Source: a phage
Assembly (NCBI GenBank): GCA_033648345.1
Contig: GCA_033648345.1_4121.1
Length of the DNA: 64,000 bases
Direction: 5' to 3' (one strand)
Position 1 is the first letter of the stretch. Every line of letters begins with the position of its first letter. Positions 34,967 to 39,973 of the stretch are shown in pieces. The position numbers and the translations under genes were made by a program. The notes beneath the pieces are model-generated. The model made no database searches and was not told where the DNA came from. It saw only the letters and a list, made by a program, of their open reading frames with translations.

Positions 34967-35194
34967 ATGACAAATACTCTTAAGTACTACCTCAATACTC
35001 TAAATGAACTAGAGTACGCGAAGTTTCTCGCGGATAGTTCGTGGCTAATTGAGCTAAAAACACATAACAGTACTGGATGTAACCTTATGCTGAACAATGC
35101 ACTTGATACCCTTGTAGTGAGTATTTTACACAGCACCATCTGCGGGGATAGCAATAAACAATTATCAAAAATCTTAGTACTGGTAGCTCTATGA
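34967..35194 (+). CDS. small protein, family S member 1 (75 aa)
   Basis: First gene of tightly packed array; MTNTLKYYLNTL…, hydrophobic C-terminus. Confidence 0.6.
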   Translation: MTNTLKYYLNTLNELEYAKFLADSSWLIELKTHNSTGCNLMLNNALDTLVVSILHSTICGDSNKQLSKILVLVAL

Positions 35195-35403
35195 ACACTA
35201 TGAACATTGAACAGTACTACATTGATGCACTACCAACAAAAGGTCTACGAGAAAGCCTACTGTATACACAAAATAATTATATAAACCTCAAACATTGTCC
35301 TAAACTCTTGAACTCGTACAGGAATAATAAAATAAGAAATGCTGTACAAGGGGTAGAAAGTATGCAATACTATTACATCCTAACCCTTTTAATCGAGCAC
35401 TAA
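35191..35403 (+). CDS. small protein, family S member 2 (70 aa)
   Basis: ATGA overlap with previous stop; MNTMNIEQYYIDALP…. Confidence 0.6.
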   Translation: MNTMNIEQYYIDALPTKGLRESLLYTQNNYINLKHCPKLLNSYRNNKIRNAVQGVESMQYYYILTLLIEH

Positions 35404-35404
35404 T

Positions 35405-35590
35405 ATGTATAAAGAATTCTACTGTAGTAAGCTGCACAAACAATACAGAGATTCATTTCCCAATGAACCTATGGATATGAATAGTCCCTTTTATAAATTT
35501 GACTTCAGACTGGAGACACGTTATGCAATAGAACATCAATTTCCTGAAACTAAGTACTTATCTATCATGAACCTCATCTTTAAGTTCTAA
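35405..35590 (+). CDS. small protein, family S member 3 (61 aa)
   Basis: MYKEFY… N-terminus; abuts previous stop. Confidence 0.6.
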   Translation: MYKEFYCSKLHKQYRDSFPNEPMDMNSPFYKFDFRLETRYAIEHQFPETKYLSIMNLIFKF

Positions 35591-35601
35591 AAGAGTACTA
35601 T

Positions 35602-35814
35602 ATGAAAACTATGAACATACACCAGTACTACTTAGATATTCTCCCTAAAGATGTACAGTTCATCCTTAAACAAGAATACAGTACTTTAAAAAACCTTAAA
35701 AGAACCGCACCGAATGTATTAATCCTGCACCAAGAAAATGTAGTTGATAATATTCTACAAGGTGTACCAGGGACCGAGTACTTTAACATAATAAGGCTAA
35801 TTACATTACCATGA
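35602..35814 (+). CDS. small protein, family S member 4 (70 aa)
   Basis: MKTMNIHQYYLDILP…; close paralogue of member 2. Confidence 0.6.
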   Translation: MKTMNIHQYYLDILPKDVQFILKQEYSTLKNLKRTAPNVLILHQENVVDNILQGVPGTEYFNIIRLITLP

Positions 35815-35996
35815 ATCATATATTATACTATTACCAAAATCTATCCGACAGGGACAAGTACACCCACAACTCCAATGTATGGTACTACAAACGCGGTAGT
35901 ATAAGAGACAAACAACATTACTTCTGTATTGCTATAAAAGAAGCACTAACAACTAAGTACACGTACAGAGCAGTACTGAAACTTATTGATATGTAA
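35811..35996 (+). CDS. small protein, family S member 5 (61 aa)
   Basis: ATGA overlap; ends …VLKLIDM. Confidence 0.55.
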   Translation: MNHILYYYQNLSDRDKYTHNSNVWYYKRGSIRDKQHYFCIAIKEALTTKYTYRAVLKLIDM

Positions 35997-36006
35997 AGAG
36001 AATACT

Positions 36007-36192
36007 ATGAATACATTTGAGTACTATACAAATAAACTATCTATGCCAGAAAGATCTCATCTCTATGTGTGGAGAAATGCGTATAAAAGCGGCAATAAAC
36101 TTATACAAAGAAATTCCCTTACAGTGTGTACAAATTTAATTAAAGCAGAGTACCGCACATATATTGAAGTACTCAAACTGATAGCAATATAA
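36007..36192 (+). CDS. small protein, family S member 6 (61 aa)
   Basis: ATG 36007 (track start 35986 is TTG inside previous gene); ends …VLKLIAI. Confidence 0.55.
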   Translation: MNTFEYYTNKLSMPERSHLYVWRNAYKSGNKLIQRNSLTVCTNLIKAEYRTYIEVLKLIAI

Positions 36193-36200
36193 GGTACTCT

Positions 36201-36380
36201 ATGCAAGAATTCTATATCTATAACCTCCAGCACAAAGATAGATACAACTATAATAAATTCCAAAGGTACTACACAGTCGGAAACAAAAGAGATAAAAAAC
36301 GATACTTTCTATCATGTACAGTAGAAGCACAAAACGAAAAGTACAGGTACAGAGAAGTACTTAAACTAATCTCTATGTAA
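36201..36380 (+). CDS. small protein, family S member 7 (59 aa)
   Basis: Below track threshold; MQEFYIYNLQ… ends …VLKLISM. Confidence 0.5.
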   Translation: MQEFYIYNLQHKDRYNYNKFQRYYTVGNKRDKKRYFLSCTVEAQNEKYRYREVLKLISM

Positions 36381-36388
36381 GGAATAAT

Positions 36389-36568
36389 ATGCAAGAATAC
36401 TATATAGAACACATAAACATTAAAGACCGTTTCATGTACGACACCTTCGTGAAGTACTACAACCTGGCAACTAACAGTACTAAAAATATTAATCTCAATA
36501 GCTGCATTCATCACGCACTAACAAAAGATAATCCCTTCAGGGAAATCCTCGCACTCGCATCTGTATAA
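36389..36568 (+). CDS. small protein, family S member 8 (59 aa)
   Basis: Below track threshold; MQEYYIEHIN…. Confidence 0.5.
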   Translation: MQEYYIEHINIKDRFMYDTFVKYYNLATNSTKNINLNSCIHHALTKDNPFREILALASV

Positions 36569-36578
36569 AGGAAACCAA

Positions 36579-38190: not shown

Positions 38191-38397
38191 ATGAACGAAC
38201 AGAAAGAATTCTACACCAAATACCTCAGTGCATCAGAACAAATGTTTCTAAGGAGTGTATCACCTTTACGTTTAGATACACCACACGCCAGAGATTGTTT
38301 TAATAATTGTATACGTATTACTCTAGAAGCTTTAGAAAACAATAACAAAAATATTCAGTACTCAGGCGTAATGGGACTAATATTCTTCTATGAATAA
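38191..38397 (+). CDS. small protein, family S member 14 (68 aa)
   Basis: MNEQKEFYTKYLSASEQMFLR…NNCIRITLEAL…GLIFFYE. Confidence 0.6.
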   Translation: MNEQKEFYTKYLSASEQMFLRSVSPLRLDTPHARDCFNNCIRITLEALENNNKNIQYSGVMGLIFFYE

Positions 38398-38578
38398 CAA
38401 AGAATTCTACATAAACCATCTGGAACTAAACTCCCAAATGCTTATACCACTAAACCCAATAGATATCAAGGATAAGAAAAATACCAAACAATTCCACTAC
38501 CACACACTATGTGCTATCAACCCTGATTATAATACATATAAACTGTACTACATTCTCGCCCTAATATATAGGTACTGA
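38390..38578 (+). CDS. small protein, family S member 15 (62 aa)
   Basis: 8-nt overlap ATGAATAA with previous stop; …ALIYRY. Confidence 0.6.
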   Translation: MNNKEFYINHLELNSQMLIPLNPIDIKDKKNTKQFHYHTLCAINPDYNTYKLYYILALIYRY

Positions 38579-38579
38579 T

Positions 38580-38765
38580 ATGCATAGAGAATACTATATA
38601 CAATTTGTTAAAGGGAACTACAAACACGCCGTCCCCGTAAACCCCTTAAATTCTAATGACCCAAGTACTATATTCTTGTTCCATGACGCAATACGTACAG
38701 TACTCAATACTAAAGATGAACAGGTGCAGTACGTATTCTTACTATTACTTATATACAGACACTAA
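38580..38765 (+). CDS. small protein, family S member 16 (61 aa)
   Basis: MHREYYIQFVK…LLLIYRH. Confidence 0.6.
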   Translation: MHREYYIQFVKGNYKHAVPVNPLNSNDPSTIFLFHDAIRTVLNTKDEQVQYVFLLLLIYRH

Positions 38766-38782
38766 AGCACTAAGGTACTAAC

Positions 38783-38986
38783 ATGTATAAAGACTTCTAC
38801 ATAAATCATCTTAGTCCCGCAAAACAATCATTCTATAAAGCAAAACCAATGAAAATGAAATTACAAAATAATTTCACAAAAATATGCTATAATAACTGTA
38901 TACGTAGTACTATACAAGCACTGCAAGAAAATGACAACAATAAACTATACTCCAACATAATGGCACTCCTATATATCTATGAATAA
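38783..38986 (+). CDS. small protein, family S member 17 (67 aa)
   Basis: MYKDFYINHLSP…NNCIRSTIQAL…ALLYIYE. Confidence 0.6.
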   Translation: MYKDFYINHLSPAKQSFYKAKPMKMKLQNNFTKICYNNCIRSTIQALQENDNNKLYSNIMALLYIYE

Positions 38987-39188
38987 TGAACATAAAGAAT
39001 TCTACTCCAAACACCTCAGCCCCTCAGAACAAATGTTTCTAAGGACTACAGCACCTTTAAATACTGATACATATTTCGGCAGATTATGCTACAATAATTG
39101 TATTCAAATGACTTTAAACGCAAACGACAATAATAACAGTACTAACATGTACTCAGGCATCATAGGTATACTATTCCTATATGAATAA
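38979..39188 (+). CDS. small protein, family S member 18 (69 aa)
   Basis: MNNEHKEFYSKHLSPSEQMFLR…; close paralogue of member 14. Confidence 0.6.
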   Translation: MNNEHKEFYSKHLSPSEQMFLRTTAPLNTDTYFGRLCYNNCIQMTLNANDNNNSTNMYSGIIGILFLYE

Positions 39189-39369
39189 TTACAAAGACTT
39201 CTATTTGAATACACTACCTACTGTACTTTCTCTAAGTGCTCAATGTAAAATCCCGCTGGATAATCCTTACGCCAGATATAACTATTCCATAACTGTTAAT
39301 CGATGTATAGAGAATCATTGCAGTACTAACCAGTACTATAACATAATCCTACTTATATTCAGGTACTAA
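39181..39369 (+). CDS. small protein, family S member 19 (62 aa)
   Basis: MNNYKDFYLNTLP…ILLIFRY; close paralogue of member 12. Confidence 0.6.
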   Translation: MNNYKDFYLNTLPTVLSLSAQCKIPLDNPYARYNYSITVNRCIENHCSTNQYYNIILLIFRY

Positions 39370-39370
39370 T

Positions 39371-39550
39371 ATGAACGAACACAAAGACTTCTATATAAGA
39401 AAACTAACATTCGTCCCCGTAAAAATATATAAAGAATGCGACCCAAGATTATACCTATGGCACTTCAATGAGTGCATAAAAGATTCTATATACCCTAAGA
39501 ACTATAAAGAACAATTGTGCTCAGTACTAACACTAGTACTATCATATTAA
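39371..39550 (+). CDS. small protein, family S member 20 (59 aa)
   Basis: Below track threshold; MNEHKDFYIRKL…. Confidence 0.5.
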   Translation: MNEHKDFYIRKLTFVPVKIYKECDPRLYLWHFNECIKDSIYPKNYKEQLCSVLTLVLSY

Positions 39551-39563
39551 TAGAGATAATACT

Positions 39564-39755
39564 ATGCATAAAGACTATAAAGAGTACTATATAAGTAAAC
39601 TCAAAGAGAATGAACAAGCATGGGTTAACAATTTAATCCCCCTGGCAATGACTCAATACGAATTTAATATGTGTACAAAGATTGTTTTAACTAGTAATGA
39701 TATCTCTAATACGTACTACTTCCTATTAAGAGTACTATATGGTACTTTGAAATAA
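39564..39755 (+). CDS. small protein, family S member 21 (63 aa)
   Basis: MHKDYKEYYISKLKENEQAW…FNMCTKIV…. Confidence 0.6.
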   Translation: MHKDYKEYYISKLKENEQAWVNNLIPLAMTQYEFNMCTKIVLTSNDISNTYYFLLRVLYGTLK

Positions 39756-39766
39756 TAAGGTATACT

Positions 39767-39973
39767 ATGCAGAACATAAAAAACTATAAAGAGTACTATA
39801 TAAGTAAACTACCACCGACTGACCAAGCATGGATTAGATCTATAATAGTACTGGCATTTAATAGATATGCATTTAACAGATGTACCGAGATTGCTATAGA
39901 CCCTTATAATATTAAAGAGAATGTACAGCATAATCAGTACTACTATATGTTAATGCTTATATATAGGAAGTAA
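39767..39973 (+). CDS. small protein, family S member 22 (68 aa)
   Basis: MQNIKNYKEYYISKLPPTDQAW…FNRCTEIA…MLMLIYRK. Confidence 0.6.
   Translation: MQNIKNYKEYYISKLPPTDQAWIRSIIVLAFNRYAFNRCTEIAIDPYNIKENVQHNQYYYMLMLIYRK

Follow-up and report, generated by a model that had tools for sequence, protein, structure and literature searches.

A tandem array of 22 small paralogous genes beside the terminal repeat of an Asteriusvirus-like jumbo coliphage

Layout and conservation of the array

The window analyzed here is a stretch of 64,000 nucleotides (nt) of phage DNA (assembly GCA_033648345.1, contig GCA_033648345.1_4121.1), and its positions 34,967-39,973 hold an array of very small genes on the + strand. 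A first-pass annotation, made from the letters alone, had described this array as 22 tightly packed open reading frames (ORFs) of 59-75 amino acids (aa), and all 22 were found. The overlapping or abutting arrangement it reported agrees with the gaps between consecutive genes, which range from -8 to +17 nt. Genes overlap at about five junctions, by ATGA (4 nt) or ATGAATAA (8 nt), and TAATATG is the sequence at many junctions. However, the small ORFs do not form an uninterrupted row, as an ORF of 219 aa that had gone unmentioned splits the eighth from the ninth. Two open frames, from 37,168 (81 aa) and 37,947 (77 aa), exceed the length of the family, and based on the family profile and the junction sequence we set the starts at 37,231 and 37,992 instead.

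The 5.2-kb region matched 35 phage records at 85-97% nucleotide identity, all of them from Asteriusvirus, and the closest was BF17 (97%). These records are Escherichia or Salmonella jumbo phages of 320-386 kb (121Q, PBECO4, BF17, and others). Judged by these matches, the window is from an Asteriusvirus (121Q/PBECO4-like) jumbo coliphage. Its G+C content is 32-41%, and no tRNA genes were found in it. Asteriusviruses are 350-kb coliphages whose genes mostly lack an assigned function, 83% of them in phAPEC6 (PMC7247149).

The array was compared among 12 close genomes, namely, the window and 11 further phage genomes, and the divergent phage JNE01 was added as the thirteenth. With the family profile, 15-22 intact full-length copies were found at the same place in the 11 further genomes. 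The comparison of copy number that the first-pass annotation had proposed therefore gave intact arrays of 15-22 copies in 13 genomes, with 22 in the window and BF17, 16 in 121Q, and 15 in SD-2_S15 and JNE01. The arrays are collinear in these 13 genomes and in one metagenomic contig. No pseudogene was found in the 13 genomes, and broken copies appeared only in the record of CMSTMSU (MH494197, flagged UNVERIFIED), where many family members and RCC1-like genes at 4,010-8,844 are truncated or split. These look like frameshift sequencing errors rather than real pseudogenes, and the record was left out as a probable sequencing artefact.

A lack of protein-level conservation in related genomes would have spoken against these genes, and the opposite was observed. 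The pooled Nei-Gojobori ratio of nonsynonymous to synonymous divergence (dN/dS) within orthogroups was 0.39 (dN 0.045, dS 0.116); this and the other ratios given here are rough, as they pool non-independent pairs from the 12 genomes. Individual orthogroups gave values from about 0 to 1.1 on small counts, and four neighboring genes gave 0.18-0.25. The array genes are thus under purifying selection that is about two-fold weaker than that on the flanks. The rapid evolution that had been supposed for the family is seen between lineages, for which the locus is a hot spot of diversification (see below), but not between close strains, which show relaxed purifying selection. A Shine-Dalgarno (SD) core (AGG, GGA, or GAG, 6-15 nt upstream) precedes 16 of the 23 starts, compared with 12% of the other ATGs in the region, and the seven starts that do not have it include all six that overlap the preceding gene. 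On these sequence criteria, the array ORFs are real genes.

The ORFs are also members of one family, as had been claimed: a leave-one-out profile recognized 21 of the 22, the first being marginal. Protein identity between members is 15-58%, and the three sub-pairs singled out earlier (38191/38979, 37802/39181, and 35191/35602) are the closest ones, with identities of 58%, 45%, and 38%. A six-frame scan of the whole window found no further copies; a candidate at 12,767-12,904 was dropped as a weak match lying out of frame within a 257-aa gene. The motifs described for the family hold in part. The tyrosine at profile column 7 is invariant (29 of 29 orthogroups), but the ending L[IL][IY][RK][YF] is present in only about half of the members and is confined to those downstream of the 219-aa gene. 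The commonest residues at other columns are K4 (18 of 29), L11 (24), F36 (14), C39 (15), and L59 (27). By their C termini, the members fall into two blocks, mostly VLKLIxM/I upstream of the 219-aa gene and mostly LIYRY downstream of it.

At the DNA level, the array units are too diverged for Tandem Repeats Finder. The only repeated DNA is a gene junction of about 28-43 nt (AGGTACTAATATGyATAAAGAATACTAC), present in 6-8 copies at an identity of at least 63%; its 28-nt core is present in 8 copies at an identity of at least 72%. This junction is the best-conserved DNA of the array. As the C-terminal codons AGG TAC TAA also provide the ribosome-binding site of the next gene, part of the conservation may not reflect constraint on the protein.

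The earlier statement that no function can be assigned still stands. Searches of Pfam, NCBIfam, PADLOC, and PDB sequences with all or representative members returned matches at chance level only. The only match was to PHROG 11711, whose function is unassigned: 15 of the 22 members matched it with E values of 0.01 or lower, the best match (8.3e-28) spanning the full length, and the other seven are tied to these through the family profile of the window. An exhaustive profile search of 1.84 billion representative proteins gave 34 clusters, all single-domain proteins of 41-75 aa, among which there were no fusions or distant relatives, and a word-indexed search of 5.8 billion proteins had the same outcome. 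With tblastn, 36 of 50,697 phage records were matched, and all were Asteriusvirus. As far as these searches reach, the family is confined to this genus. In IMG/VR, 121Q alone was recovered, the family alignment being too variable to seed the scan, and Rfam had no match in 34-44 kb. Several homologues are labelled Escherichia coli and lie on contigs of 126-359 kb, mostly about 350 kb. We interpret such contigs of about 350 kb as Asteriusvirus genomes within bacterial assemblies, which fits the report that Asteriusviruses are among the lytic phages most often found to persist in E. coli isolates (bioRxiv 10.1101/2024.12.31.630880).

Table 1. Genes of the array and the signals on either side of it
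Feature	Position	Strand	Length (aa)	Remarks
Sigma70-like promoter	34913..34941	+		TTGACA-17 nt-TACTAT, 10/12; CAGTACTG in spacer; found by scan; followed by SD AAGGAG
ORF A	34967..35194	+	75	Marginal family member; leave-one-out E 0.09; in 12/12 genomes; dN/dS 0.55
Member B	35191..35403	+	70	Other possible start 35,200
Member C	35405..35590	+	61	
Member D	35602..35814	+	70	Other possible start 35,611
Member E	35811..35996	+	61	Overlaps D by 4 nt
Member F	36007..36192	+	61	Mechanical ORF begins at TTG 35,986
Member G	36201..36380	+	59	
Member H	36389..36568	+	59	
Embedded ORF	36579..37238	+	219	PHROG 29152, function unassigned; not a detectable family member
Member I	37231..37413	+	60	Overlaps 219-aa ORF by 8 nt; open frame back to 37,168
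Member J	37416..37613	+	65	Window only among 12 genomes
Member K	37615..37800	+	61	Structure modelled; PHROG 11711, E 8e-28
Member L	37802..37990	+	62	
Member M	37992..38180	+	62	Open frame back to 37,947
Member N	38191..38397	+	68	Orthogroup at array position 3 in 121Q-type phages
Member O	38390..38578	+	62	8-nt overlap
Member P	38580..38765	+	61	
Member Q	38783..38986	+	67	Window only among 12 genomes
Member R	38979..39188	+	69	
Member S	39181..39369	+	62	BF17 without it, an exact one-gene deletion
Member T	39371..39550	+	59	
Member U	39564..39755	+	63	
Member V	39767..39973	+	68	Final array gene
Terminator-like hairpin	40318..40346	+		GGCAGAGGAAGTCTGCC + T run; found by scan; conserved in relatives; at left edge of terminal repeat (40,317)

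Predicted fold and turnover of the locus

The structure of member K was predicted by AlphaFold2 (AF2) from an alignment of the 22 paralogues alone, with a predicted local distance difference test score (pLDDT) of 92.9. The model has four helices: two short ones at the N terminus and, after a proline-containing loop (residues 16-27), two long ones (28-43 and 47-60). Among solved or predicted viral structures, nothing outside the family was found to resemble it. The residues conserved between paralogues (Y7, L11, F36/C39/T40/I44, and Y53/L57/L59/I60) are spaced i, i+3/4, which in the AF2 model places them on one face of each helix. The model thus suggests a conserved hydrophobic scaffold to which the N-terminal K-E-Y/F-Y and, from helices 3 and 4, one face each contribute. 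Substitutions between orthologues are concentrated in loop columns 17-30 and at the N terminus, and the C-terminal helix is nearly fixed; in terms of the model, the scaffold carries a variable loop and variable exposed faces. The members are rich in tyrosine (10.8%, versus 5% in the other proteins of the window) and poor in glycine, the grand average of hydropathy is mostly negative, and the isoelectric points range from 5.5 to 9.7. Being mostly hydrophilic and of such mixed charge, they are expected to be soluble, and a family made up uniformly of acidic DNA mimics or of basic DNA binders is not expected. In summary, the members are predicted to be all-helical cytoplasmic proteins of about 60 aa, paralogues that diverged anciently.

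The composition of the array differs from phage to phage. The 205 members from the 12 genomes cluster at an identity of at least 70% into 29 orthogroups, which keep one relative order and differ by the presence or absence of single cassettes, patchily even among close relatives. Groups J and Q occur in the window only, and the position of group N is 14 in arrays of the window type but 3 in those of the 121Q type. Every difference between the window and BF17 is a whole gene unit with breakpoints at gene junctions: gene S is missing from BF17 as an exact 189-nt unit, and two insertion breakpoints relative to BF17 share 28-55 nt with the window. Whole-unit differences with breakpoints at the junctions are the signature of unequal homologous recombination between conserved junctions, by which copies are acquired, deleted, and relocated as entire cassettes.

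Over a larger distance, the locus diverges far more than its surroundings. The 15 members of JNE01, the most divergent isolate, are 30-59% identical to their best counterparts, whereas four downstream genes are 88-99% and an RCC1-like gene is 96.5% identical. The metagenomic contig shows the same contrast, with the members at 26-60% and the flank at 88%. The 219-aa gene, which is only 38% identical in JNE01, diversifies along with the array, and by this comparison the whole locus, including the embedded gene, is a hot spot of diversity.

The ends of the 219-aa protein loosely resemble the family motifs, and we considered it as a family member with an inserted domain; this was rejected, as hhalign gave a probability of 0.3% and the AF2 model reached a pLDDT of 36. 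Its length varies. In the Salmonella phage SD-2_S15 (record piece 6,581-6,994), an in-frame deletion has removed about 80 residues from its centre and left 137 aa, and the form in SD-6_S16 has 120 aa. In the 121Q-type phages, the N-terminal residues (about 90) and the C-terminal residues (about 45) are almost invariant, and the middle is variable.

Expression signals and neighboring sequences

The gene upstream of the array lies on the opposite strand, so the 84-nt divergent intergenic region should hold the promoter of the array. The sigma70-like promoter in Table 1 lies within it, and its hexamers, the CAGTACTG motif in the spacer, and the SD sequence are conserved in all 12 phages aligned. 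A scan of the + strand for terminator-like sites found none within the array; the hairpin at 40,318, conserved in the same 12 phages, comes first.

The hairpin coincides with a landmark of the genome. The BF17 paper describes direct terminal repeats of about 20.5 kb (PMC10059673). In the BF17 record, the sequence of positions 1-4,000 recurs identically at 362,904-366,903, and its first position aligns to position 40,317 of the window, which is thus the left boundary of a direct terminal repeat of about 20.6 kb. The end of the array is 344 bp from this boundary. The array therefore lies beside the repeat and not inside it, as the last unit of the unique region before the right-hand repeat.

Within the repeat, between 40,682 and 62,255, the + strand carries about 22 promoters of the type TTGACA-16/17-TATAAT, with 11-12 of the 12 positions matching. 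They have the same architecture as the array promoter, with AGTACTG in most of the spacers. Short ORFs follow most of the promoters, and a conserved leader (GTTTACATCAAGGGGAGA…TTCTCCCC hairpin) is also found downstream of many. By its promoters, this stretch looks like an early-gene region that fills the terminal repeat. In the related phage CBB, RpoD-like promoters mark short hypothetical genes, some of them in the terminal repeat, and the authors suspect that these are early host-take-over genes (PMC5259590). The available part of the virion mass-spectrometry table of phAPEC6 lists the RCC1-like gp549, gp551, and a 4.7-kDa protein, and none of the array orthologues gp540c-548c is found in those passages (PMC7247149). 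Early timing is suggested by the type of promoter together with its position, and early, non-structural expression of the array is plausible on these grounds.

The 2 kb around the boundary (40,000-42,000) has no long ORF in the annotations of most relatives. It contains short tandem repeats (CTGGGTGG four times at 41,147-41,180, GTAATCATAA-type repeats at 40,128-40,188, and copies of ctagacggctaaacggctagat at about 41,110-41,210), and strong promoter-like sites lie near the repeat edge on both strands (40,682 on the + strand, 41,704 and 41,363 on the - strand). From its sequence, this interval may hold a packaging terminus or an origin.

The motif seen in the promoter spacers recurs throughout the window. 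The palindrome AGTACT occurs 275 times, with about 22 expected from composition, and the next most frequent 6-mer palindrome occurs 69 times; examples of AGTACT are at 9,713, 34,925, 40,268-41,927 (11 copies), 53,827, and 58,437. The CAGTACTG sequence occurs 63 times, compared with about 0.7 expected. AGTACT is enriched inside genes in all three frames (172 versus 54 +/- 5 after synonymous-codon shuffling) and is three-fold denser in non-coding DNA, where it is often located in the spacer of a near-perfect promoter, immediately before the -10 box. It is possible that AGTACT is the site of a regulator, a target of DNA modification, or something else. A second class of promoter on the + strand, TTGACT-tcggtcagccctttttgt-TATAAT-catttcatcaactac, usually with a conserved spacer of 18 nt, precedes genes at several places in the left part of the window (237, 3,831, 4,487, 7,248, 11,611, and 12,495).

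Beyond the intergenic region, 15 consecutive RCC1-like paralogues of 264-449 aa occupy 15,869-34,882 on the - strand, with mutual identities of 23-72%. The one adjoining the array (33,698-34,882) has no orthologue at an identity of at least 70% in the 11 relatives, which indicates that the RCC1-like array also turns over. The annotated starts of these genes (MNKGGNM…) are probably six codons too early, since AAGGAGG stands before the second ATG. Farther to the left, seven abutting ORFs of 104-123 aa (13,394-15,833, + strand), the first of which is PHROG 19454, resemble another tandem set. They show no mutual BLASTP similarity at E 1e-5 and, by sequence, are either unrelated or very diverged.

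Possible roles and comparison with known systems

We tentatively suggest, with somewhat less than even confidence, that the array is an early operon whose products are diversified small binding proteins that share a scaffold and are aimed at host targets, in host take-over or anti-defence. In this model, host RNA polymerase would transcribe the block early from the promoter at 34,913 into one polycistronic mRNA, co-oriented with the promoter-dense terminal repeat 344 bp downstream, and translation would be coupled from cistron to cistron along the array. Each paralogue would be a small binder or inhibitor of a different host target or target variant, and the phage would for this reason keep the whole panel and reshuffle it between strains through junction recombination. 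A host-directed or anti-defence function is hypothesized from the position of the array, the type of its promoter, and its pattern of evolution. Several observations weigh against it. The promoter matches the consensus at only 10 of 12 positions, the dN/dS is below 1 in nearly all orthogroups so that positive selection is not demonstrated, and the C-terminal conservation is confounded by the ribosome-binding site of the next gene. The divergence of JNE01 could stem from replacement by recombination, or import out of a distant lineage, instead of fast substitution. Many ancient paralogues kept in a fixed order would be compatible with a multi-subunit assembly as well. It is also conceivable, although we consider it unlikely, that the paralogues form a shuffleable library of inhibitors that neutralize different defence effectors or toxins through the variable loop and the surface of helix 3, possibly together with the 219-aa protein. 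The conserved junctions of about 30-40 nt would then be recombination handles by which co-infecting jumbo phages swap cassettes, and phages would have in this array an equivalent of immunity-gene arrays and of the terminal multigene families known from large eukaryotic viruses.

The main rival to the host-directed operon, partly compatible with it and in our view a minority possibility, is that the small proteins work with the 219-aa protein, as its partners, adaptors, or neutralizers in an effector/immunity-like pair or a modular complex. A gene of about 220 aa is found at the same internal position in every array examined (13 phage genomes and the metagenomic contig), its start is coupled to member H and its end overlaps member I by 8 nt, it is restricted to Asteriusvirus like the small family, and it shares with that family a relaxed constraint (dN/dS 0.48) and a co-divergence in JNE01 (38% where the flanks are 88-99%). 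However, the protein has no recognizable domain in Pfam or PADLOC and only a PHROG without function, its AF2 model (pLDDT 36) is unusable, and it has no profile similarity to the small family. SD-2_S15, without the middle 80 residues, still keeps 15 small genes, and it is not obvious by what stoichiometry a single partner would serve more than 20 small proteins. Less probable again is a role in the biology of the phage itself, as a hetero-oligomer, as regulators, or as chaperones or partners of the 15 RCC1-like virion proteins. The array adjoins the 19-kb run of these paralogues divergently, copy number varies in both arrays, two RCC1-like orthologues are virion proteins according to the phAPEC6 passages, and old paralogues kept stably in a fixed order fit distinct subunits. 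But the two arrays lie on opposite strands, and the host-type promoter contrasts with the presumably late virion genes; the virion proteome passages from phAPEC6 contain no small member. Neither do the arrays diversify together, a JNE01 RCC1-like protein being 96.5% identical to a window paralogue when the small proteins are at 30-59%. Whole members also come and go between strains (15-22), a variation that should be intolerable for an obligate complex.

Two explanations in which the proteins themselves matter little can be given very low probability. The repeat unit could act mainly at the level of DNA or RNA, with GTACT as a site for a phage factor or for mRNA processing and the ORFs as secondary. 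AGTACT is far above its expected number in the window, GTACT reaches its highest density, 26 per 2 kb, in the array and sits at characteristic positions near the end of each gene and at the junction, and the junction is the DNA most conserved there. Yet conservation is at the protein level, with synonymous exceeding nonsynonymous divergence, paralogues at 15-58% protein identity have unit DNA too diverged to be seen as a tandem repeat, the 22 paralogues alone yield a confident predicted fold, and no frame is broken in the 13 genomes. This explanation is essentially excluded by the data on selection and integrity. Even less credible is the view that duplication left the ORFs behind as non-functional remnants, or that they are annotation noise. 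They are very short and lie in AT-rich DNA, and several database annotations skip many of them. Against this stand a dN/dS of 0.39, the absence of pseudogenes in the 13 genomes, the SD sites, and a specific family profile, and by the same data on selection and integrity this view is effectively refuted.

The array genes have already been deposited: PHROG 11711 and the phage 121Q proteins gp249-265 and their orthologues are the same proteins, subsets of which are hypothetical proteins in GenBank, and the PHROG 11711 profile misses the diverged upstream block. By term searches, the array, its paralogy, and its dynamics are not described in the phAPEC6, Sharanji, fEgEco12, and BF17 papers; in the last, paralogues and terminal repeats were the main terms sought. 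Searching the literature on Asteriusvirus transcriptomics and on the CAGTACTG motif brought up nothing relevant. A fold restricted to one genus, in about 20 copies, with cassette turnover, divergence above that of the flanks, and a position next to the repeat, makes a sharply defined target, and the array would be one of the clearest places to seek host-specific weapons of the phage. If members prove to be inhibitors, the orthogroups, more than 40 in number, would offer small binders on a common scaffold as a ready-made panel; if they do not, the locus would still illustrate, as a clean natural case, how a multigene family of a phage is kept up and reshuffled.

Compared with other expansions and arrays of small proteins, the family shares some traits and lacks others. 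Bacillus phage G has a lineage-specific expansion of about 35 zinc-ribbon proteins (PMC7824862), which is similar in that a jumbo phage carries tens of copies of one tiny domain with no assigned role. Unlike those proteins, the array family has no zinc-binding pattern, with one partly conserved cysteine (15 of 29 groups), and its heterogeneous charge does not suggest a DNA-binding role. None of the features of a zinc-ribbon or helix-turn-helix expansion, namely, a Cys/His metal-binding pattern, a helix-turn-helix fold, or basic charge, is present. The immunity arrays of polymorphic toxins (PMC3482391) likewise consist of small, diverged helical paralogues with a conserved core, a variable surface, and a larger variable neighbor. 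The difference is that the 219-aa protein has no detected toxin domain and that the setting here would be a phage early operon; no array member has a sequence or fold match to immunity families. As for anti-CRISPR-like loci, the accessory, patchy distribution is present (15-22 copies from 29 orthogroups in 12 genomes), and no Pfam domain of an aca-like helix-turn-helix regulator was found in the members or the 219-aa ORF. The array proteins had no PADLOC match to components of defence systems.

Closer parallels are found in two other settings. Early gene clusters comparable to this one are the host-take-over module of SPO1, the pre-early region of T5, and the terminal-repeat genes of Twort-like phages. 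With the early host-take-over clusters in or beside long terminal repeats, as described for CBB (PMC5259590), the array shares about 20 tiny, packed genes next to a repeat, and the site preceding it is a putative host-type promoter. However, such clusters consist mostly of unrelated genes, whereas the array has 21-22 paralogues of one fold; it lies just outside the repeat, and its early timing is a prediction. Terminal multigene families are also known from large eukaryotic DNA viruses, as the multigene families (MGF) of African swine fever virus (ASFV) and the gene "accordions" of poxviruses. These, too, are tandem paralogues near a genome end that change in copy number by unit-length recombination, in a locus that diverges much faster than the core. 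The viruses and proteins are unrelated, and the proteins here are much smaller. The array contains no near-identical copies that would point to recent amplification, the closest pair being 58% identical in aa and 73% in nt. By analogy, the array resembles in kind the early host-take-over clusters beside terminal repeats, and in its dynamics the terminal multigene families of eukaryotic viruses.

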